Below, piece after piece: positions 11,866-27,576 of a stretch of DNA of 64,000 nucleotides (the first letter of the stretch is position 1; each line of letters begins with the position of its first letter). The stretch is from Rhizodiscina lignyota (lineage: Eukaryota): assembly GCA_010015805.1 (NCBI GenBank), contig ML978131.1, forward strand, positions 1 to 64,000, in the 5' to 3' direction. The notes beneath the pieces are model-generated. The model did not search any database. It saw only the letters and a list, made by a program, of their open reading frames with translations, and was not told where the DNA came from. A program made the translations under genes and the position numbers.

Positions 11866-12443
11866 AGTGAAAGAGAAGAGGCGAGGATGAAAGGGTGAGA
11901 GAGGGTATTTAGCAGCGTGAGGTGAGCAGATCTGCTGCAGGCCTCCGTGGACGCCAGGAGGCTGGCCGCACCTCCACCTTAAGGATTAAATCGCTGCCTT
12001 ACACAGATAGCCGAATTACGATGTGCCAGGCCAGGCCAAATTGAGGCTATGTGGTGATGCAGACGGCCCGCACGGTCGTACGCGCGTCAACAGCCTCTCC
12101 ATATTCTGCAGAAAGGTGGCAGGCCAGTGAGAAACAAGGGGTGGGCGCCGAAAACGAGCAAAGCGTGCTGTTCTTTGCGTGGTGACGAATCTGCCGTCTC
12201 CACATGCTGTCCCACAATCACGGTTACGAAAAGCTTAGCAGTGCTTGTTTCTCCACCGTCTCCCTGGCAAGGAGCAGCAAGGAACGGTGATCATAAGATG
12301 CAGTTGAGTCCTCGGGGGAATGCTCAGCCCAAAGCCAGCCGTGCTCTGATTGGCCGATAATTGCGGCGGCTTGGCTACAAGGGGCCGTCCATCACGTGTG
12401 GGTATCAGATGCACGTTGGCTGTGAGCATTGATAACTCCAGAT

Positions 12444-14353
12444 ATGAGCGACCCTCGACGGCAGCCTTCTAAGAGCGCAGAATCACACTCCTTCCCTCTC
12501 GCTCCATCACCCACTATGGCTCCTCCACAGGAGCCTCTCCTCTCTGGCCGCCCCTCCTCCGACGTCTCCAACGATAACAACCTGGCAGAAGAAGACGCTC
12601 TACTCACCGGTGAGCGTCAACAGCGTCCAAGCGGCCCACCGTCACGATGGCAACGTTGGAAAGATATTGGACTCTTCGCTTGGGCGCTGGTCGCGACGGC
12701 TGTTGTCATCATACTGGCCGTGGTGTACCAAAAGCAGAACAGTGAGAACGGTAGCTCGGGATCCAATCCCACCGGCAAGAGGAACTTGATATTCATGGTC
12801 AGCGATGGAATGGGACCAACAAGCTTGTCTATGACAAGAAGCTATAGGCAGTTCGAAGCGGGATTGCCGTATGATTCGAAACTGACGCTCGACTGGCATA
12901 TGATCGGCCAGAGCCGAACCAGGAGCACATCGAGTCTGGTCACCGATTCTGCAGCAGGCGCCACTGCGTTCAGCTGTGGTAAGAAGAGTTACAACGGCGC
13001 AATCTCTGTTCTGGATGACCATACACCCTGTGGCACAGTGCTCGAAGCTGCAAAGAAGGCTGGTTATATGACGGGTCTGGTTGTCACGACCCGGATCACC
13101 GACGCTACACCTGCCTGCTTCGCTGCACACGTCAATATGCGCAGCGAGGAAGACAGAATCGCAGAGCAAATGGTCGGCGCCATCCATCCTCTCGGCCGTG
13201 TCCTCGATCTCATGATTGGTGGCGGACGATGCCACTTCCTCCCAAATACCACCGATGGGTCTTGCCGTGCCGACGATACGGACGTCGTTGCATTGTCAAA
13301 GAAGGACGGCTGGAATTACATTGATACGCGCAAGGACTTCGACGGCCTGAAACTTGGCAGTGAGGTTGAACTGCCGCTGCTTGGCCTCGTCGCGGACCAC
13401 GATATCCCGTATGAAGTTGATCGAGCACAGGAGAATGAGAACTATCCCTCGCTCGATGAAATGGCGCGCACGGCAATGAAAGCGCTCTCTGCAGCGACGA
13501 AGAACAGCGATAAGGGCTTCTTCCTCATGATCGAGGGTTCGCGTATCGACCATGCCGGCCATGCGAATGATCCTGTCGCTCAAGTGCACGAAGTGCTTGC
13601 ATATGATCAGGCGTTTTCTTCTGTACTAGAGTTCCTTGAGAAAGACGACGTCCCCGGCGTCATGGTCTCCACCTCCGATCATGAGACTGGTGGTCTCGCC
13701 GCCGCACGACAGCTTACCGCAGCTTACCCGGAGTACCTGTGGTTCCCTGGTGTGCTTGCTAATGCATCAAGGAGTTCGGCGTGGCTGACGGAGCAGTATT
13801 ATACGCACTTGGATCACGCCGCCAAAGGAGATATGAGTGCATACATCAAGAAGCAGCTCAAGACTGGTCTCGGCGTTGAGGATGCAAGCGACGATGAGAT
13901 CAAGAAATTGGTCGACAATCCCGAGACTGCTGCATACCAGTTCGCCGATATCATTTCAAGGAGGGCGCAGACGGGATGGTCAACACATGGCCACTCTGGT
14001 AAGTCCTTTCTACCTCCTCTCATTGTCTTCATAAGATATACTGATGTGAATTAGCTGCGGACGTGAACATCTACACCTCTGACCCCCATGCCGCCGCACC
14101 CCTTATCGGCAACCACGAGAACACATACGTCGGCGAATTCCTGCGCAACTACCTCTCCGTCGATGTCGAGTCCATCACACAGGAACTGAAAGACAAGGGC
14201 ATCAAGCTCAATTCAGTGGATGCGAGTGGCAACGAGGTCAGCTGGCTTGGAAAGATGCCGGAGAAGGACGAGAGATTGGACGGACAGGACCATTTGCAGC
14301 ATTATGATGGGAACTTTAAGAAGAGACATGTCGGCTGCGACTGTGGGTTGTGA
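12444..14353 (+). CDS. pho8: alkaline phosphatase, Pho8-like, type II membrane anchored
   Basis: join(12444..13998,14055..14353). Motifs FMVSDGMG, the catalytic-Ser motif VTDSAAGATA, TDATPA, IEGSRIDHAGH, SDHETGG and THGHS|AADVNIY. One N-terminal TM helix. Confidence 0.93.
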
Positions 14354-15038: not shown

Positions 15039-16559
15039 TTAGTATTTGCAGCGACCACAATATCCGCAACCCTCTGCAGAACAAGCCGTGTAGTCCCCTT
15101 CGAAACTATCCTCGTCAGAAGCATCCTCCTCCGAGAGATTGGGATTGAACCGCTCGTCCTCATAATGTTCGGCTCCGCTATCCGCGGCTTCAGACTCAGG
15201 AGACTCATTGCCAATCCACCGCACCTTCATCTCTAAAGGCAGCGCGTCAACGCCATCACCGGCTTGATTTCGGATTTCAAGTTCGTCTCCATCGTCTCCA
15301 ATTGGTGGCCTGTTGATCTCCAGCTTGACGCCTTCACCTTCTGCTCTGGCAAACTCAACGATCTTGTGGATTAGGACGACAAGTCTCTTCAGCTCATCTG
15401 CATGACTCTCTTCCCATTCTTTCACATCTTCTTGCACGTCCTGTTCACGGATATCGTGGAAGATGCCGTGATCGTTGTATCCTAGCACAACGTTGGATAT
15501 CTGTTTTACCCACAGGACTGGAAGCATGTCTCCCATATCGATGGGGCGACCAGCCCAGCGAGTCTTGATGTCAAAGACCGACGACTGTGGGATGGGCTCC
15601 CCAGCGACCATCACTTGAAGCGGCTTGTTGGAAGTGGATGAACTCTGGCTCGACTTGATACCGAAAGCATCCAGATCTTGCAAAGCGTTGGACATCTCAT
15701 TTTCGCCATGCAAGCGCAAGGGCTTCTTTGATTGCTGCCCCGGTACTCTCTCTAACAGAAGCTTCATAAGCACTTGTCTTGTTAGCGTCGATGGGCTCAA
15801 ACGTACGCTTGTAATATCCATCGGATTCGAACCGAACAAGGAACTTGAGCCCGCCAAAACTGTACTGCACCAAGCGCTGGTGCGATTCGGAGCCCTTCAC
15901 ATCGGGTTCCCAGCTGGTATAGTTCTCTGGAAACGTGTGACCATAGCCTCTTACGTCTTGAAGGAGTTCACTCGGTGAATTTTCTTTGCGGACGAAGAAG
16001 ACCGTGTTGCCGACGACCTCAACGTTGAATCTGAACGTTCGATCGAATCTACGAGCAAATCGAAGAAGGTTCCCCATGGTACTTCCACATGCGAAGACAT
16101 CAATATCTTGCGTTGGGAACTGAGGCTGTTGCGTGAGCAGTGCTTGCACAGCAGGCTCAGTGGGATGATCTGGGTGTCGGGCTGCGTTCGGATCTCTGAA
16201 ATACTGTCCAGAGTCCGGAGGGAGTCTAGCAGGTTCTTAGAGGGGTGTCCACGCAGGAGGCTTTCCTAATTGAAAGAAAACATCAGTAAGATGCGACTAT
16301 AAGACGGGACGTTGTTCTCACCCGGCACTAGGATCGTTGGAGAGCTCTTCGAAATCCATGAATATGAGGCGGCGTATTCGCACTCTGAAATTTTCGGTAT
16401 CTGAGAATCAGAACGTTCGCCATCCAGTTCGACTTGGGCAATGGTCATTAACAAAGGCCCGAACGGCGGAGGCGGTGTCTGCTGAGGAGGTCTTTGTGGA
16501 GTCTGTAGACGCCCCCGCGAGGCTCTCCGGCCTGATGGCCATCCTCTCCGACCATACAT
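15039..16559 (-). pseudogene. RAI1/DXO-like (PD-(D/E)XK fold) protein of the fungal family often labelled 'geranylgeranyl pyrophosphate synthetase'-like; carries an in-frame TAA
   Basis: Exon 16559..16322, intron 16321..16266. Exon 2 reads GKPPAWTPL*EPARLPPDSGQYFRDPNAARHP, with TAA at 16239-16237. The later frame change fits an intron with donor GTACGT at 15806, branch GCTAAC and acceptor at 15773 or 15752. Motifs RGYGHTFPE, VRFESDGY, FDIKTR, LWVKQ..VVLG and C-terminal CSAEGCGYCGRC. Confidence 0.65.
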
Positions 16560-16986
16560 GACAAGAACTTCAAATGATTGAAATGCTGAATACAGTGAAC
16601 TGGATTTAGTTGAATTTTCGGAAAAGGGGGAGAAGATTTCAGAAAGTGAAGCCTGTCTTTCGATTGCTCCTTTTGTTCACCGGCAAACGCAGCCCATGGA
16701 AAGTGTATGCACTTTTGCCGCTTCAGTCAAGCTGCAGCTCTCTTGCAGTTAATTGTTACACAAGCACGAGCGCCCCTCCCGAGACACTTCAGCACTGCAT
16801 ATTTCAAAATCTGTCTTCCGTAACTACCAAGACAACCGTTGCAAACGACTTAGTGGTCTACTTGCTTCTCAAAAGACCGCAGTTTTCTGTCTTCAAATTT
16901 CCAATGTTGTTCTATCTCCTTGATTTCTAGTCAGAAGCTAAGCGATTCCTCTGCATCGTAAGTCTATATTTTGCAAACGAATATCA

Positions 16987-19900
16987 ATGACAGATAACAT
17001 CTTGAAGATGCCACAGAGCTCTACTCTAGATCGCGGTCGTCTTGAGTTCCTTGACAGGTTCTTCACTCTTGTATTGCATGGAAAGAGAACGGTTTCGGAC
17101 CCCCGAAACGCTAAACTATATATTGAAGCTATTTGCAGCCAGACCGACCCACTGATATGCACTGAAAGGCTCAATGCAAGCTCGGCAGCATTGAGCGCAT
17201 TGCACAAGAGCGTAACCTACGATTTGTCTCCAAAATTTCTCAATAGCAGTGTCGCTGAACTGCTGGGGTTCCTTTCCAGTCCGTCTCTCAGATCCGTCTG
17301 CAACGGCCAGTTTCTGCGCCGTATTCTATCATGCATCGTCGATCCACCTACACTTTGGAATGCCTTACTTCAGGCCCAGACTGAACGCAAGTTAGAGAGA
17401 CACGCCATTCAACGTCTCGCATGGCTTGTCTGGCAGCTTCTGTGCTTTGGGGATTGCGGACCGGATAGCCTCGAAGATACGGCGCAAACCCTCACCAAGC
17501 AAGAGGTTTTCATCAGTAGTCCCGATGACGAAACGAAAGATCTCGGGCGGAAGATCAAAGAGATCCTCTCGATCACTTCAACGCCAACGGCGAAGAACGA
17601 TGATGGGTACAGGCCTGGCGGTCGGCATGACAATGATTTTGAGGATTTCCGGAAGATTGCAATCCTCCCGACACCAGACGAGCTGGCATCGACAGAGAAA
17701 TCGTTCTATCGAAGAATGATCGATGTTGCCGACGTAGAGCCAGACCGCCGTATCGCGACGCACCTTGACAACCAGTTCCGCCTCCTTAGAGAGGACATGC
17801 TAAAGGAGCTGAGAGACGGTATCCAGAACGCCCTTGGAAATGCAAAGCGTAGGCGAAGGCCTATTGTGTTTGATGGTCTTTCCCTAGTAGGCATTGACTG
17901 TGGCACTGACGCAAGACGTAAGCTCTGTGGACTAGCATTGCAACTGCAAAACGACCTCCCGCAGCTAAGTGCAGTTCTCACGGCGCAGCCAAGCGTAGTT
18001 CCCACGGCGCAGCCAAGCACATTTCCCACAGCGCGGCGAAAGGCATTCCTTAAAGCAAATCCCGATCTATTTCGCCATGAATCTTTCGGTTGTTTGATGA
18101 AAGATTCCGAGATTGTTGCATTTGGTCAGATTGACAGAAACGAAGATCAACTTGCTCGAATTCCTCCTATCATTACGCTCCAAATAGCGAGCGAATCAGC
18201 ATTTGAGAGAGCTTTACTTCGGTGCAAAGCAAAGGGGGGCCTCAAATTCATGCAAGTCGATACACCAATGTTCGCTTACCAACCTATCTTGGAATGCTTG
18301 CAATCTAAGACCGAAATGTCGCTGACTGAAGAGCTATTCTCCGACACGGCCGGTGGAGAATCATCAGTGAAGCCGCACGCTCTCTTGGATAGGATCAAGC
18401 ATCGCGACGGTGACGATCTTAAGGCTACCTTGGCTACTGACAAGTCCATTATCCTTGATAAATCGCAGCTGGATTCGTTGGTTCATGGCTTGACCCGGTC
18501 TCTCAGCTTGATACAAGGGCCTCCTGGTACGCTTTCTAACTGATAGTTCTATCAAACATGCTCACCCGTTACAGGAACCGGAAAGTCTTTCATCGGAGCG
18601 CTAATTGCCAAGGCTTTGATCAATCACACCTCAGAAACACTCCTTGTTCTTTGCTACACGAATCACGCAGTCGACCAATATATGGAGGACCTCATGGACA
18701 TCGGCATACCATCTGACATAATGGTTCGTCTGGGCAACCCAAAGAAGTGTTCCGCAAGAACAGAGTCACTGCTTCTTTTCCCGCAGTCTGGCAACTTCAA
18801 CAATTTCAGTGCAGCGACATGGAAAGCTGTTAAGAAACTCAAAGAGGAAGTTCGCGGCTTGGAAGGAGAGATCAAGAATCTTGTACACGCTTATGAGAGC
18901 GCATCACCCAGATACGCGGACATAATGCAACTGCTTGAATTTTCGGAAGACGATTCCGACTTCTTCGACGCTTTTACAAATCCTGTGGAGGTCGATGGTA
19001 TGGAGATTGTCGGCTCTGGAGGAAGATCCGTGGCCGCCTCTTATCTCTTTGACAGGTGGAAGGATGGTCGAGACGCAGGAGTTTTCGAAGCCCAAGCAAT
19101 GGATTCCCATGCTGAAATATGGACAATGAGTGCTGCTGAGCGCCACACTCTCCACGAAAAATGGATCTCGGAGCTGTTGCGGCAAAGAGTCGAAGCTATT
19201 GGACTTCTGGTCAAAAAATACAATGTTTCTGAGCGCCAGCTGAGGAACGTCTTTCGCGAGAAGACCCGTTCGGCCTTGAAGCAAAAGCGAATCATCGGGT
19301 GCACGACAACATTTGCGGCAAAGTATACCCAGGATATTCAAGCAGCATCGCCGGGAGTCCTGATTGTTGAAGAGGCTGGGGAAATCCTCGAAAGTCATGT
19401 TTTGACGGCATTAAGTGCCAACACGAAGCAGGTTGTCCTAATTGGCGATCACAAGCAGCTCCGGCCAAAGGTCAACAATTACGCACTCATGGTGCAACAG
19501 GGAGACGGATTCAACTTGAACCAATCCTTGTTCGAACGATTGGTGCTCTCCGGTGTACCTCATACAACACTTCAGAAGCAGCATCGTATGTGTCCTGAGA
19601 TCTCAAGCCTCGTGCGAAACTTGACCTATCCGGACCTCGCCGATGCGCCTGGTACTGCAAATCGGCCTCCACTACGAGGGTTTCAAAATAGACTTGTCTT
19701 TGTCAACCATAATCAGCTTGAGTTCGAAGCCACTCAGATAGCAGAGAAGAGAGATCCAAGCGCAAAATCGAGTAAGCAAAACGTATTTGAGGCTGATATG
19801 GTTCTCAAATGCGTTAAATACCTTGGGCAACAAGGCTATGGTACCGACGACATTGTCATCCTTACCCCTTATCTTGGTCAACTTTACCTCCTCCGAACAA

Positions 19901-22900
19901 CATTGAGCGAGACCAACGATCCCGTGTTGAACGATCTTGACACCTTTGACTTGGTTCAGGCGGGATTGCTCCCTGCAGCAAGTGCTTCTGGGCCAAAGAG
20001 ACGTATTAAGCTCTCCACAATCGGTATGTGCTCCATCTTAACCCCTTCATCCATGGTTATTAACGTTAAATTCCTCTATAGACAATTATCAAGGTGAAGA
20101 AAGCGATATTGTTGTGGTCTCTCTTGTTCGCAGCAATTCCAAAGGCGAAATCGGCTTCATGTCCGAACCCGAACGAATCAATGTCATGCTCTCTCGAGCT
20201 CGGAACGCATTGATCATGCTGGGGAATGCGGATACGTTTATGAAAAGCCGAAAGGGCAAGACGTGGAAACTGCTGATGGATCAATTGAAGCATGATGGTA
20301 GTGTATATGATGGCATTCCTGTGAAGTGCGAACGGCATCCGGATCGCAAGGCGGTTCTCCAGAAGCCAGAAGATTTCCACAGCCTATGTCCCGATGGTGG
20401 TTGTTTAGAGCCTTGGTGAGTTTTGCAGTACAATTTTGTGAACGTAGCTAACCATTGGAACAGCGGCGTGGACTTGAACTGCGGGGATCACGTATGTCCA
20501 CATAAATGTCATCAGCTCCATGATCATTCCAGCATGGAATGCAGGCGAATCATCAACGTGGTATGTACAAAAGGCCACAAGAGCTCTACGAATTGCTTCC
20601 GCAAAAAGAAACAATGCTCAAAGTGCGAGCAAGAAGCAAGGGATCTAGCAAGGCGTGTGAAGCGAGACCATGACCTTGAGATGGAACGAGAAAGAATCCA
20701 GGATCGATATGCCTTGCGATTGGCAGAGATACAGGACGAGATTGAACATGAAAAGAAACTGATGCAGAAGGAATCCGACGAGATCGCTCATCAGCAGACC
20801 ATCGAGCAAACTAAACAAGAACTCGCTGATCTAAGGGCAGCTAGAATAAGGGCAGAAACGGCAAAAGCGGAGAGGGATAAATCGGCAAATTCAGTCCAGC
20901 AGAGCCCTGCCAGTGGAGAATCTGGCACCAAGTATACCACTTCTAGCGCGCAACACTCGAAGCTTCCATCCAGCTCCGCAAGAGAGGAGTGGGAGCACGA
21001 AAAGAAGCTCACCGGCGCTAGCAATGATGCACTTGATGCATTGATGAAAATGATCGGCTTAGAGGACGTCAAGGAGCAATTCTTAATCACGAAAGAAAAA
21101 GTCGACTTAGTAGTGAGACAAGGCGCGTCCTTGAATGATGAACGATTCAGTGCGGCATTGCTAGGCAATCCGGGTACTGGTATGTCGCTCTTGAATCGAT
21201 TCGGTGGCAGAAGCTAACATAGAAAGGCAAAACGACCGTCGCTCGTCTATACGGGAAATTCCTTTGCTCGGTTGGCGTCCTGCCAGGCAACCATTTCATC
21301 GAGACATCCGGGTCGAAGTTGGCGAATGCCGGGGTCAGTGGCTGTGAGAAGCATTTGGAGGAAATCAAAAATCGCGGTGGCGGTGTGCTCTTCATCGACG
21401 AAGCGTATCAACTGGTGTCTGGCAGCAGCCATGGCGGCAAGGCTGTATTGGACTTTCTCCTTGCTGAAATCGAGAACTTGGTTGGCAAAGTGGTCTTCAT
21501 GTTCGCCGGCTACGAGAAGCAAATGGAAGATTTCTTCGCACACAACCCTGGGATCCCGAGCAGAGTCCCATATCAGTTTCGATTCCAGGACTACGACGAC
21601 GCTCAACTACTACAGATACTGGAGTCACGCATCCATGACAAGTACAAGGGCGGTATGGAAGTCGAGGGTGGCCCTGGTGGACTCTACCTCCGAATCGTTG
21701 CCCGACGTATTGGTACTGGCCGCGGCCGCGAAGGCTTTGGCAATGCTCGCGCTGTCCACAATACATTCTCTCAGATTGCGGACCGACAGGCGAGGCGAAT
21801 CCGAAAGGCGAAGAAATCTGGCACAAATTCCAACGTTAATCTTTTTACGAAGGAGGATCTCATCGGCCCAGAGCCAAGCGACGTACTCAAAGACAATGCG
21901 GCCTGGAAGGAGCTCCAAAATCTCATTGGGCTGAAGTCTGTCAAAGACTCTATCAAAGCGCTGCTCAGCACGCTTCAGACAAACTACCAGATGGAGCTTG
22001 AGGAAAAGCCGTATATCGAGACTTCCCTGAATCGAGTATTTCTTGGCTCACCTGGAACTGGCAAGACTTCTGTCGCCAAGCTATATGGTCAGGTTCTTGC
22101 TGATATTGGTTTCCTCTCGAATGGAGAAGGTGAGATCATTAGAATGCTGCCGTTGCAACATATACTGACACTTTTACAGTTATCGTGAAGAATCCCGCAG
22201 ACTTTGTTGGAAATGTACTAGGCCAGTCCGAAGCAAATACCAAAGCTATCCTGGCTGCTACAGTAGGCAAAGTTCTCGTAATCGACGAAGCATATATGCT
22301 ATATCAGTCTCCCCGCATGGGAACCAATAGTGGCGTGGATCTGTTCAGTGGTAAAGTCATCGATACGATTGTTGCTGAAGTTCAAAGCACTCCTGGAGAA
22401 GACCGATGCGTGCTTCTGCTAGGGTACAAGGATCAAATGGAAGAGATGCTTCAGAACGTCAATCCAGGACTCGCGCGGCGCTTCCCGCTCTCAAACTCGT
22501 TCTATTTCGAAGATTTCAGCGAGGACGAACTGGCGCAGATCTTCGATCTGAAGTTGCGACAACAAGGCTTTAGCGTATCAAAAGATGCACACAAGGTTGC
22601 CTTGGAGATCCTTTCAAGAGCTCGCAACCAACCACATTCTGGGAATGGAGGCGAAATTGACATACTGCTTAACCGAGCCAAAGAAGCACAACAGCTGCGA
22701 ATATCAACTGGTGCCCTCCCATATACAAACGCTCTTGAGGCGCGAGACCTTGATCCGGAATTTGATCGAGCTGATCGTGCTATTACAAATTGCAGATTGC
22801 TATTCAAGGACGTTATCGGTTGTGACGCGATCGTTGCTAAATTGGAGGGGTACCAGAAGACCGCTGCGAATATGAGGAGTCTGGGTGAAGATCCTCGCGA

Positions 22901-24248
22901 AGGAATCCCTTTCAACTTTCTTTTTCGTGGCCCTCCAGGCACAGGGAAAACGACAACAGCGCGAAAGATGGGCAAGGTCTTCTTCGACATGGGATTCCTC
23001 TCAAAGGCAGAAGTCATTGAATGTTCTGCCACGGACCTCATTGGCCAGTACGTCGGGCACACTGGTCCCAAGGTACAAAAGCAGCTTGAAGGCGCCCTTG
23101 GGAAAGTCCTGTTCATCGACGAGGCTTACCGATTGGGCGGCGATGGCTTTGCAAAAGAAGCTATGGATGAACTGGTCGACGGTCTCACGAAAGTGAAGTA
23201 CGCCCAGAGACTTGTCGTTATTCTCGCTGGATACGACAAGGACATAAACAAGCTCATGGCTACGAATCCTGGGTTGACGAGCCGCTTTCCAGAGGATATT
23301 ACTTTTACCCACTTGACGCCCGAACACTGTCTGAACCTCTTCACCAATCTCCTCAGTAAGCGGCAAAAACTCGACATCACGTGCCTAGTGCAATTGCTTT
23401 CGACAGATCGAGGACGAGTCCTGGAGTATTTTAAAACCCTCTCAGAGCTTCCGAACTGGGGAAATGGTCGAGATGTGGAAACGCTTGCAAAGACTGTTTA
23501 TCGGAATGTAATGCAGTCCGTAACGATCTCAGACACCGACCCTCAGCTACAACTCTCTATGGATCTCGTCTTCACCGTTCTTAACAGAATGACAGAGGAG
23601 CGAAGAAGCCGCGCAAAGCACTCCGCCGGAGAGGACAACTCTCTTGCGAATACTCTTTTGCAATCGGCGATGCCAACCCAAATTCCGCAACCCGAAGTCA
23701 CAAGCCATACTGGCGCCGGCACAGCGACGAAAGTTGACTCGAATACGGAGGGTCCACAGGCTTCTCCTGGAGCGGAGAATGATGCGCCGGGGGTTGAAAC
23801 AGCGCCATCGCGAGATGAGGGAGTGAGCGATGAGGTGTGGCAGCAACTTCAGCAAGACATTCTCGCGGCTCAAGAACGCGATAAGGACTACGCTCAAATG
23901 ATGCACAAGCAGGAGGGGCTACAAAAGGCTACGGCGGAGACTGAATTCGAAGAGCTCAAAGAGATATCTACCAAAGAAGAACAAGATGAGGACGATGAAG
24001 ACCGCCGCCGACGTGAGCAGGAACGCCTTAAACGAGAGCAAGCGAGACGACGACGTGAGGCAGAACTGGAGGAGTTGATCAATAAGCGCAAAGCGACAGA
24101 CGAAGCGAGACGCAAAGAGGCATTGGCACAGAAAAAGCTTCGGGAGATGGGCGTTTGTTGTGCGGGATTTCGCTGGATCAAGCAGAGCTCGGGGTACAGG
24201 TGTGCAGGCGGCAGTCATTCTGTGTCTGATTCTCAGCTGGGAATGTAA
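16987..24248 (+). CDS. ZNFX1/NFX1-type Upf1-like SF1 helicase fused to NF-X1 Zn-finger, coiled coil and three CbbX/SpoVK-type AAA+ domains (~2336 aa)
   Basis: join(16987..18526,18575..20023,20082..20415,20464..21179,21227..22129,22180..24248) = 7011 nt, in frame. Helicase region: PGGRHDNDFEDFRKIAILPT, HLDNQFRLLREDM, QGPPGTGKS, VEEAGE, LIGDHKQLRP, QHRM, TPYLGQ, TIDNYQGEESD, RINVMLSRAR. Cys/His finger EPCGVDLNCGDHVCPHKCH. AAA Walker A motifs GNPGTGKT, GSPGTGKT and GPPGTGKT, each followed by (F/V)IDEAY. Confidence 0.93.
17977..18038 (+). repeat. 24-bp coding tandem repeat (LTAQPSVV/PTAQPSTF/PTARRK)
   Basis: ctcacggcgcagccaagcgtagtt cccacggcgcagccaagcacattt cccacagcgcggcg. Confidence 0.8.
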
Positions 24249-24888: not shown

Positions 24889-26580
24889 CTATCTCCGTCC
24901 CACAAACCTGACCCCAGCATCGCCTGGTCTCCTCAAATGCGTGCTGACGTTAAAGAACTTCTCATCCATAACGCTCATTACCCGCCTTCTCGCGGCTTCC
25001 TCGCTCTCCGCCTCGCTCTCTTTCAGAAGCTCAATTCGGTACTGAGATATCACATGAGCAATCACAGCGACGAACTCGACCTGGCTGAACTTCTTTCCCG
25101 GACATACGCGATTGCCAAAGACCCATGCCATGAACATTGCACCTTCTGGTGGCGATGCGATCGTCTCTTCTCCAGTCGGTGAAACAGCTACGAAGCGCTT
25201 GGGGTTAAAGTCGTGCACGTCGGAGCCCCAGCGTGGGGAAAGATGTGTGCCATAAAAGTGCGCGGCGATGAGAGTATCAGGTTGCACAGTGATTGATGTG
25301 TTTCCTCCACCGGGCGATGAGAGCGTAAGTTCTGTCGGAACGACTGGCGCGCGAATCATCTGCGGTGCAGGGCCGGAAAGGCGAAGCGTCTCGTACATGA
25401 ACGCGAGACATCGAATCAGTTTGGGATACGTCTCTTCATAGCTTGTTTGACTGGTCTTGTTGGTGTAGTGAGCGTCAACTTCTTCCGTAACCCAATCCTG
25501 AAACTCGGGGTACAACGCAAGGTAGGGCAGAGCGAATGACATTGTACTCGCTGTGGTCTCATAACCGGCAAGATTGAAGACAAAAAGATTTCCATATAGC
25601 TCGGAGTCGGCCAGATATGAATATTTGGATTTGGCACTGCTGTCTTGGTTCTGAAATTGGAGCTTTTCGGCCTCGTTTGCGTTAACCATCGCCTCGAGTA
25701 GACTGACTCACTTTGGAGAGCCATCTTTAGAAGATCTTTGGGGGGCTTGCATTTGTCGGAGTACGCATTCTTCCATGTACAATCGTAGTTCCGAAACAGA
25801 GAGTTTGAGACGTCTGAGAATCTTTGGCATGAATATATCAGGCGCCTTGAGGCCGGAGAAGACTATGCTGACAAAGACGTGCCTGAGGATGAAAGCAAGT
25901 GAATCCATTAGTGTCAAGCGATGTCCCGAAGGAATGCTTGTCAAATCGTTGTCCTGGCCAAACGCAACCGATGCCAAAACATGCATTGCGAAGAGCTCGA
26001 GGTCGGTTCGAATTCCAGCGATCGTTCGGTCGGTGCCTTTGGTATCTTCAGGAAAGTTGAGCACTTCAGCGGATCGCTGAATGGACTCTTCCCAGACATA
26101 ACGCATGCTTTTCTCGCCGAATGCCGTCGCAGTGATCTTGCGATGCCGTTGCCAGTCGCTACCGTTTGTAGACGAGACATTCTGGCCATAGGCAGTGAAT
26201 ACCTGAGAGTGCGGTGGCGGTATGATCCAACCCTTGTTGTCCCTGTAGACACGCTCAATTGCAGGAGGATACGTTATCATGATCTGGTTGCGCGTCGGAG
26301 CAACCAGAATGAAATTCTCTCCAAGTCGTGAGGGGGTTCTGTCGCCGTCAACCATAGGCCAGCCCATATCTGTGTAGAGGTACCAGCTCCCAAGCCCGAA
26401 GGGTAGGCGCTCAACCCAGGAGAAAAGCGGTCTCAGCAGAAGCCAAAGCGGGTCCTCGAAGGAAACAGGCAGGATAATCATGGGGAGATTGAGCTTGCGT
26501 GCGGCATTGTAATTGCGGGCCAAATTGAATATGCGGACCAACAGGAAGACAAAAGGAAGAAGGGCCAGGTATGCCAACAT
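24889..26580 (-). pseudogene. cytochrome P450 interrupted by an in-frame TGA (probable pseudogene or null allele)
   Basis: ORFs 26580..25708 and 25689..24889 are in the same frame: KDGSPK*VSLLEAMV. N-terminal TM, WQRHRK, AGYETTA, ETLR, PKRF and heme motif WVFGNRVCPG are present. Confidence 0.75.
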
Positions 26581-27576
26581 ATTGACGGCCGGAGGGATAT
26601 GACGAGCAAGTTCGAAGTTTGTAGTGCAGGCTACGTCCTTTTAACAAAATCCGCTCAGACCCTCATTAACGATTCACAAGGCGACTGAAATATGTATTAG
26701 GAATCAACAAAAACACAAGTACGGTAGTCAGCAAGCGGCATTCACTCAGACCGCAGAAGAAGAGAACTCTCCTTTTGGATCGGAATGAGGCCGTTCCTTT
26801 ATCTTATACGGATACATAATCCTTCAGGGGATCGTCCAGTGCTTATCCCGAATCGCCGCGATGCGCCGTCACAGTTCAGATCATTAGTACATAATAGGCG
26901 ATAGCTGACGAGCGCTCCAATTGTGACTTCAAACCAACTTCGGAGTTTGCCTTGAAGGACGGCTTGATCCTGAGACTTGACAAAGTCAACGGTATGTATC
27001 TCGCAGTTGTACAAAAGCATTTACTTGCCTCTTCTCCAATGCCTTCATCTCCACTCAACATCTACACGCGCTGCACAGACCACATGTTGCGCCCTGTGAG
27101 ATTTCATCAGCATTTTAATACTTCAATCGAAGTTACAAAGCCATTTTCAAGGCTCTCGCCTGAAAGTTCGAGGTTCCCCTGACGTGAGTAACGCGGTCCA
27201 CCCTAAAATAGCTCGCGCTTGTCTTATTCGGGACTAGTCTTGCGAGCGGCTCCATGGAAATCGATACGGAGCTGTTTGGGAGGACAGACAGATAGGGGTT
27301 CAAGACGAGAGCTCATGCAGAAGCATTCATTGAAGATTGGAACCTTTTGTAGACTGGCATAGGCTCTAGAGTGGCATGTGTAAAATGTCAATTGGACCAA
27401 AACTCAGGGTTGGGTGCGAAGCAAACCGTCTACCCACGCAAGAGATCTTTTGGCAATGTGGGAGTCGGTACGATGATAGTAAGGTTAGATAATGTACATA
27501 GGTTTTACATAGCGAAGTGAAGAAAGTAAGATTTCTCGCGGCGCCGACCGAAATCAAGCTTCATAAAATCTGAAAT

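Follow-up and report, generated by a model that had tools for sequence, protein, structure and literature searches.

DXO, Dxo1 and Rai1 (PF08652) are decapping and 5′-3′ exoribonucleases with an ordered set of catalytic motifs, for which we used the definitions in PMC4513879, with further comparison material from PMC9014873. Pet127, a mitochondrial PD-(D/E)XK 5′-3′ exoribonuclease, is active with a QD-DLK core, that is, with Asp for Glu in motif IV (PMC7648066). In Caenorhabditis elegans, the DXO-type enzyme EOL-1 is induced via the RNA-sensing helicase DRH-1 and is required for enhanced RNA interference (RNAi) (PMC7735679). Here we describe a pair of divergent genes in the fungus Rhizodiscina lignyota (assembly GCA_010015805.1), one for a small DXO/RAI1-like protein and the other for a large helicase followed by three AAA+ domains (helicase-AAA3). 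The pair lies within the first 64 kb of contig ML978131.1 (C11 in genome G000), the stretch that was analyzed and that we call the window. The helicase is related to ZNFX1, Hrr1 and SAD-3, which have roles in RNA silencing, and the AAA+ domains resemble the CbbX/EccA/SpoVK remodellers. We slightly favor reading the pair as a module of Pezizomycotina that is inducible by viruses and acts in 5′-end decay of RNA. Its parts are of known kinds, and their pairing appears to be undescribed: no description of the small-protein family or of the gene pair was found in the literature searched, which was mostly non-subscription; the DXO duplications in the available part of PMC11571810 are listed without this family, and PMC12511879 does not mention ZNFX1, NF-X1 or CbbX.

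The original prediction, made from the sequence letters, had described two genes diverging from a spacer of about 430 bp, and the start codons are indeed 427 nt apart. We evaluated the persistence of this arrangement in a metagenome scan that started from the nuclease side. Of 165 confirmed nuclease matches, the best 80 were used for the locus counts, and 21 of these, with less than 1 kb of upstream sequence, were set aside. In the remaining 59 informative loci, a helicase gene stood head-to-head with the nuclease 53 times and in any other arrangement never, and six loci had no helicase. At 90% identity, the 80 loci formed 54 clusters (38 paired, 4 unpaired and 12 uninformative), which gives 38 paired among 42 informative clusters. 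Ten named genomes showed tags for both genes in comparable numbering, and in 9 of the 10 the tags were adjacent (Trichoglossum, Sarea, Orbilia, Dactylellina, two Arthrobotrys, a Pleosporales sp., Diplodia and Parastagonospora); in A. entomopaga they were not. No third gene accompanied the pair, since no flanking gene was present in more than 4 of the 42 regions. A quick family tree was used only for choosing a divergent clade as query.

The small protein carries the public label 'geranylgeranyl pyrophosphate (GGPP) synthetase', as do many database proteins. Judged from its predicted structure, this label is a misannotation, as had been proposed. Foldseek ranked Rai1/DXO first (E 1e-12), and in a comparison with 48,161 chains the top seven were DXO, Rai1 and Dxo1 (Z 17.7-23.8), followed by eIF3d (Z 13.6-15.1), with unrelated folds at Z ≤5.5. 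The window protein matched DXO1 with Z 23.8 (root-mean-square deviation, rmsd, 3.6; 285 residues aligned) and an intact homologue did so with Z 26.0 (rmsd 3.6; 299 aligned), and the likeness extends over the whole domain (Z 22-26); over both models, Z to eIF3d was about 13.6-16. In the Atlas, TM values to RAI1 clusters were 0.61-0.70, and PF29557, under which Pfam 38 appears to have catalogued this domain, was assigned to the aligned part of the family; we found no mention of this accession in the literature searched. Trans-prenyltransferases are all-helical proteins with paired DDxxD motifs. The model of the small protein is alpha/beta, the window protein has no DDxxD, and 52 of the 57 DDxxD matches in homologues fall in an acidic tail, and a GGPP synthase was therefore rejected.

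Sequence comparison set the family apart from its structural relatives. Pfam, including RAI1, gave no family above cut-off in five proteins and none of the GGPP-synthase type at E ≤1; a PDB sequence search with the small protein returned no match at E ≤10; identity to DXO structures in the structure alignments was 8-16%; and hhalign to the genome's own RAI1, a separate true copy that is retained, gave a very weak probability of 0.2%. Pet127 shares the D-L-K form of motif IV but differs in size and context, and its Pfam matches were faint (E 0.24-0.27 in two of five homologues) and below cut-off. Unlike DXO/Rai1, the family carries an acidic linker and a four-Cys knuckle at its C-terminus. With 2754 representatives (50% identity, E ≤0.001), it reaches Sordariomycetes and Leotiomycetes among the 120 of 1536 matches listed. 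None of 32 prokaryotic pattern matches was confirmed, and no viral structural relative was found at E ≤0.001.

GHTFPE, FESDG, FDIKTR and LWVKQ are all present in the predicted order, and the proposal that they mirror the RAI1/DXO catalytic set stood for motifs III and IV. We counted conservation over 118 aligned family sequences and, for wider patterns, over 378. Motif III (EhD) is kept as E179 (107/118) and D181 (117/118), and motif IV as D-h-K-T, with D246 in 116 (Glu in the other 2) and K248 and T249 in all 118; D-x-K-T was found by pattern in 373 of the 378. In motif II (G-Phi-X-Phi-E), an invariant Pro occupies the Glu position and Glu follows it in 111/118, within a helix. The registers of motifs I, V and VI come from sequence and secondary structure only, that of motif I set by eye in an ungapped comparison with the genome's own RAI1 and that of motif VI by sequence against the same protein. 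In these registers, the motif I Arg appears replaced by Gly (111/118), and motif V (KX4-Phi-h-Q) has no conserved Lys, with the conserved Gln of LWVKQ five residues later; the hhalign register agrees, at a probability of only 0.2%. LWVKQ, which had been taken for the W..Q of motif V, is probably out of register, its Gln (117/118) lying at the end of a helix. In place of motif VI (GhR/K) there is A/G-Y-H in 117/118, whose His is Asn only in the window copy. Motifs I, V and VI thus appear non-canonical. Since motifs III and IV are kept and these three are apparently changed, the small protein would have the build of a DXO enzyme that depends on metal but whose 5′-end pocket is altered, and we regard it as a divergent DXO subfamily, not established as a canonical member. 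Among unpaired nuclease copies, the motif III Glu is Lys in L014 and L022 and Gly in L075; L016 looks intact.

The changes in these motifs could also mean that the small protein is a non-catalytic reader of the 5′ end or cap, similar to eIF3d, that loads the helicase. eIF3d has the same fold (Z 15-16), the Arg of motifs I and VI are apparently lost, motif II is shifted and the motif III Glu is replaced by Gly in 8/118 aligned sequences and in 31/378 by pattern. The near-invariant motif III Asp and the D-x-K-T pattern argue in the opposite direction, as does active Pet127, which likewise has QD-DLK (PMC7648066), and we consider a reader very unlikely.

The window copy of the small gene is interrupted, a point on which the original prediction needs correcting. 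A TAA at codon 89 is in frame with the canonical acceptor of intron 1 and directly follows the conserved GKPPAWTPL. With an alternative acceptor at 16236, the intron would be 86 nt long and 10 codons would be skipped, the stop among them. Such an acceptor, 30 nt downstream, is the one in the public model (422 aa), which thereby avoids the stop but deletes the GKPPAWTPL motif. P-x-x-W preceding RDxN is present in 82 of the 84 homologues that span the region, and residues 81-140 of an intact homologue model have a pLDDT of 94-98, while the predicted model of the exon-skipped form falls to pLDDT 47 at the junction and loses one strand. Intron 2 is required for the frame and rests on sequence, not RNA; its removal gives a spacing of 69 aa, against a homologue median of 67 aa (n=81), and it is missing from most homologous loci. 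An assembly error was considered as the source of the TAA; in one sequencing run, which may be the assembly's own source data, there were no differences from its bases at a depth of 154.

The copy departs from the family at 2 of 77 conserved columns, the same as the median of homologues, and from this we take the lesion to be recent. Repeat-induced point mutation as its origin was rejected, with indices of 0.50 and 1.27 that resemble those of the remainder of the window. We also rejected an adenosine-to-inosine rescue of TAA to Trp, since Trp occurs in 0/90 homologues at this place, albeit a variable site at which Gln is commonest (22/90). The nuclease copy of this genome is probably a recent pseudogene beside an intact helicase. 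In the paired nuclease genes L069, L070 and L081, stops break the core frame (intron or decay).

The large gene was predicted to encode a 2336-aa superfamily 1 (SF1) helicase with an NF-X1 finger, a coiled coil and three CbbX-type AAA+ domains. Removal of five GT-AG introns yields 2336 aa with no internal stop, SF1 motifs are present at residues 511 (GPPGTGKS), 779 (EEAG), 808 (QLRP) and 1033 (LSRA), and Walker A/B pairs at residues 1342/1403, 1620/1682 and 1898/1960. Pfam matched AAA three times and AAA_lid_6, and the similarity extended to CbbX (E 1.5e-30) and EccA1 (E 6.4e-28); unlike those remodellers, this protein carries a tandem of three such domains, C-terminal to an RNA helicase. The finger and the coiled coil are less firmly placed. 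The Cys/His cluster at residues 1099-1163, whose pattern is conserved in homologues, is NF-X1-like by eye, and zf-NF-X1 and PF25396 (the ZNFX1 domain) are not among the Pfam matches listed (a complete list for protein P0144 and the top 25 for three others). Charged helical runs at residues ~1146-1250 and 2196-2304 were located with a crude proxy only. The C-terminal mini-domain had no Pfam family and no usable Atlas match. Of the 120 helicase homologues listed, 67 are of full length and combine four Walker A motifs with the Cys/His pattern at the C-terminus.

The closest solved structure to the helicase is ZNFX1 (E 3e-91; UPF1, E 6e-33), the ZNFX1-specific stalk segment is also matched, and both have a Cys-rich region following the helicase, which agrees with the predicted family as far as kinship goes; fusion to the AAA+ domains distinguishes the window helicase from ZNFX1, Hrr1 and SAD-3. 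The genome has a closer ZNFX1/Hrr1/SAD-3-type gene with PF25396 elsewhere (L103:3443-7309, G000:C1; E 2.6e-132, a tree-free comparison). By this measure, the window helicase is a distant ZNFX1 paralogue and not the genome's closest ZNFX1 relative. A helicase-less paralogue, L115 (G000:C11, ~646800-651090, minus strand), has three AAA domains of the CbbX type, followed by a C-terminal domain that has diverged, with no DXO-like gene within the 20 kb examined around it.

Co-regulation of the two genes was supported, as co-expression, by published responses to mycoviruses. The three grounds for refutation named in the original prediction, which concerned fold, recurrent linkage, and co-expression or RNA-related phenotype, thus all turned out in its favor, the third through co-expression only. 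In Fusarium graminearum, FGSG_02131 is a family member by sequence, and the adjacent FGSG_02130, labelled 'Zinc finger, NF-1-type', was assigned by label and adjacency only. With FgV1, FgV2, FgV3 and FgV4, the log2 fold changes (log2FC) were −4.92, +2.79, +4.26 and −0.67 for FGSG_02131 and −4.56, +2.29, +3.60 and +0.28 for FGSG_02130, compared with −0.72, +2.81, +4.30 and +0.78 for the dicer gene FGSG_04408 and −1.34, +2.29, +2.70 and +1.25 for the argonaute gene FGSG_08752 (PMC4071046). The pair therefore rises with FgV2 and FgV3, like dicer and argonaute, and falls about 25-fold with FgV1, a virus reported to repress DICER2 and AGO1 transcription (PMC6988435); none of the 16 neighbors listed rises with both FgV2 and FgV3. 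In Cryphonectria parasitica, infection with CHV1 raised the counts of 342243 from 81, 86 and 25 to 530, 391 and 381 (~6.8-fold) and those of 342244 from 333, 335 and 124 to 1769, 1449 and 1395 (~5.8-fold), with a 2.1-fold increase of dcl2 (PMC7379330). These two genes are labelled 'geranylgeranyl pyrophosphate synthetase' and 'aaa family' (PMC6530638). They were assigned by label and adjacency; no C. parasitica protein is among the 120 of 1536 family matches listed. Adjacent genes 320079/320080 and further genes labelled AAA-family, Sir2, FtsJ, vWA and HET are also co-induced with dcl2 in this fungus (PMC6530638), possibly a wider defense regulon.

Because induction of the pair follows dicer and argonaute, an accessory arm of RNAi has to be considered, in which the helicase would act with the RNA-dependent RNA polymerase or Dicer, like Hrr1 and SAD-3, and the DXO-fold enzyme would trim the 5′ ends of precursors or small interfering RNAs, like EOL-1. 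The kinship of the helicase to ZNFX1 and the nearest outside structural cluster of the small protein, which is mostly nematode (49% with RAI1, TM 0.70), are consistent with it, and EOL-1 offers a precedent (PMC7735679); that likeness is by description, and DRH-1 is RIG-I-like. The genome, however, has the closer ZNFX1-type gene available for this role, and the three AAA+ domains are left unexplained. We consider such an arm rather unlikely.

The Podospora anserina genes Pa_3_10420 and Pa_3_10430, the latter assigned by adjacency, have values of 5.67 and 2.92 in one unlabelled column, probably vegetative incompatibility, and are blank for bacteria. By analogy with bacterial abortive systems composed of an NTPase and a PD-(D/E)XK nuclease, this could reflect a shut-off or cell-death switch triggered by non-self, in which the helicase would sense RNA and the AAA+ ring would release or activate the nuclease against host RNA. 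The tight, operon-like linkage of the two genes would suit such a switch, as would loss of a costly effector nuclease in the window genome and, in C. parasitica, a place in the same list as genes labelled HET, vWA and Sir2 (PMC6530638). It is made improbable by the strong induction in living mutants described below, by the uncertain label and assignment of the Podospora values, and by a fold typical of a 5′-end enzyme rather than an endonuclease.

Several observations weigh against a virus-inducible decay module, in addition to the motif changes, including the Gly in motif III. The Fusarium p-values are nominal (0.0007-0.024), and the drop of dicer and argonaute with FgV1 is not significant (PMC4071046); neither the pair nor dicer and argonaute are listed in the FgHV1 supplement. 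FGSG_02130, 342243 and 342244 were matched by label and adjacent identifier, not by sequence. In Table 2 of PMC6530638, the star for hypovirus-affected genes is only on 342244, and the strongest induction of the C. parasitica pair, a log2FC of 5.4-6.2, occurs in virus-free mitogen-activated protein kinase (MAPK) mutants, together with dcl2. Four of the 42 informative clusters lack a helicase partner, the window's own nuclease appears dispensable, and no knockout, activity or substrate data for the pair were found in the literature searched. Divergent genes also co-vary through a shared promoter regardless of function. A further alternative is a general stress-induced pair of unrelated functions joined only by a common promoter, to which the induction in virus-free MAPK mutants, the unpaired nuclease copies and the AAA3 paralogue without a nuclease neighbor would conform. 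We regard this as highly improbable, given that linkage and orientation are retained over several fungal classes while all flanks differ, that both genes are of RNA-acting types, and that the cell-wall MAPK mutants concerned also show induction of dcl2 and agl (PMC6530638).

The spacers were compared for a common element. The 8-mer CAAGGCTG, chosen post hoc, occurs in 17 of 39 homologous spacers, several of them at related loci, against 1.2 expected, and the best 8-mer of 30 shuffles reached 9. Per kb, spacers carried 0.79 copies and the flanks used for comparison, which were mostly coding, 0.048, a ~17-fold difference. Around the genome's RNAi genes there were 11 matches in ten stretches, several within open reading frames. 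The window spacer has only the variant CAAGCTG (16728-16734) in place of CAAGGCTG. A second element, TAGGCCTC, lies ~60 nt from CAAGGCTG in several related loci (among the paired loci L002-L081).

In the decay module that we favor, the shared divergent promoter would switch on both genes with the Dicer-2/Argonaute programme, as the published co-expression suggests. The ZNFX1-related SF1B helicase would engage foreign RNA and the triple CbbX-type AAA+ module would strip or remodel bound protein, as expected from the functions of their families. The DXO-fold partner, with its metal core kept and its 5′-phosphate pocket apparently altered, may then hydrolyze non-standard RNA 5′ ends and lead the RNA to decay. 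EOL-1, as a DXO-type enzyme induced via an RNA-sensing helicase, is a precedent for such a module (PMC7735679). The two proteins may be in contact; a co-fold of the Sarea pair (helicase residues 1-600 with nuclease residues 55-445, without alignments and with one fragment choice) scored 0.00, which is neither for nor against binding. We propose more tentatively that the pair is an antiviral machine of filamentous fungi independent of RNAi and comparable to bacterial two-gene defense, in which an RNA-sensing helicase with its own AAA+ motor would act together with a dedicated DXO-fold nuclease whose 5′-end specificity is new. Both genes would answer to viruses through one promoter element, for which CAAGGCTG is a candidate and which would be repressed by at least one mycovirus.

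The coordinates of the features are collected in the table. On either side of the pair, the window contains what we take, from their translations, to be an alkaline phosphatase-like gene (12426-14353, +) and a cytochrome P450-like gene (24889-26640, −). Neither was recurrent beside the pair in the other loci surveyed.

Table. Features of the gene pair in the window (positions counted from its first nucleotide)
Feature	Position	Strand	Remarks
DXO/RAI1-fold gene, public label 'geranylgeranyl pyrophosphate synthetase'	15039..16559	-	ATG at 16559; exons 16559-16322, 16265-15807, 15751-15039; 469 codons, stop at codon 89
C-terminal four-Cys knuckle	15048..15083	-	After acidic linker; pattern in 95 among 120 homologues listed
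LWVKQ	15501..15515	-	Probably not motif V
FDIKTR, motif IV as D-h-K-T	15558..15575	-	Sequence match
Inferred intron 2	15752..15806	-	55 nt
FESDG, motif III (EhD)	15817..15831	-	Sequence match
GHTFPE, motif II-like	15925..15942	-	Glu one residue past canonical place
CGSTMGN, in place of Rai1 motif I (WRG)	16069..16089	-	Arg apparently replaced by Gly; ungapped register, by eye
Premature TAA	16237..16239	-	Codon 89
Intron 1	16266..16321	-	56 nt, GT..AG
Divergent spacer, inferred bidirectional promoter	16560..16986	.	427 nt; without CAAGGCTG; CAAGCTG at 16728
Helicase-AAA3 gene	16987..24248	+	ATG at 16987; 2336 aa; introns 18527-18574, 20024-20081, 20416-20463, 21180-21226, 22130-22179
ZNFX1-related SF1B helicase region	17617..20242	+	Stalk-like segment and core, aa ~211-1050
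Cys/His-rich NF-X1-like zinc-finger region	20387..20629	+	aa 1099-1163; pattern only
Three tandem CbbX/SpoVK-type AAA+ domains	21038..23597	+	Walker A/B intact in all three
C-terminal Cys-Cys-His mini-domain	24150..24245	+	After charged helical run; highly conserved

Fungal antiviral defense has been described mainly in terms of Dicer and Argonaute, and the pair is a concrete and widespread second candidate. Since gene identifiers are ready in model fungi (Aspergillus nidulans AN7246 and its neighbor, and P. anserina Pa_3_10420), the function of other virus-induced fungal genes becomes directly testable. The analysis corrects the GGPP-synthetase label and adds to the DXO enzymes a divergent subfamily that, with its apparently altered pocket, may act on RNA ends of a new type.

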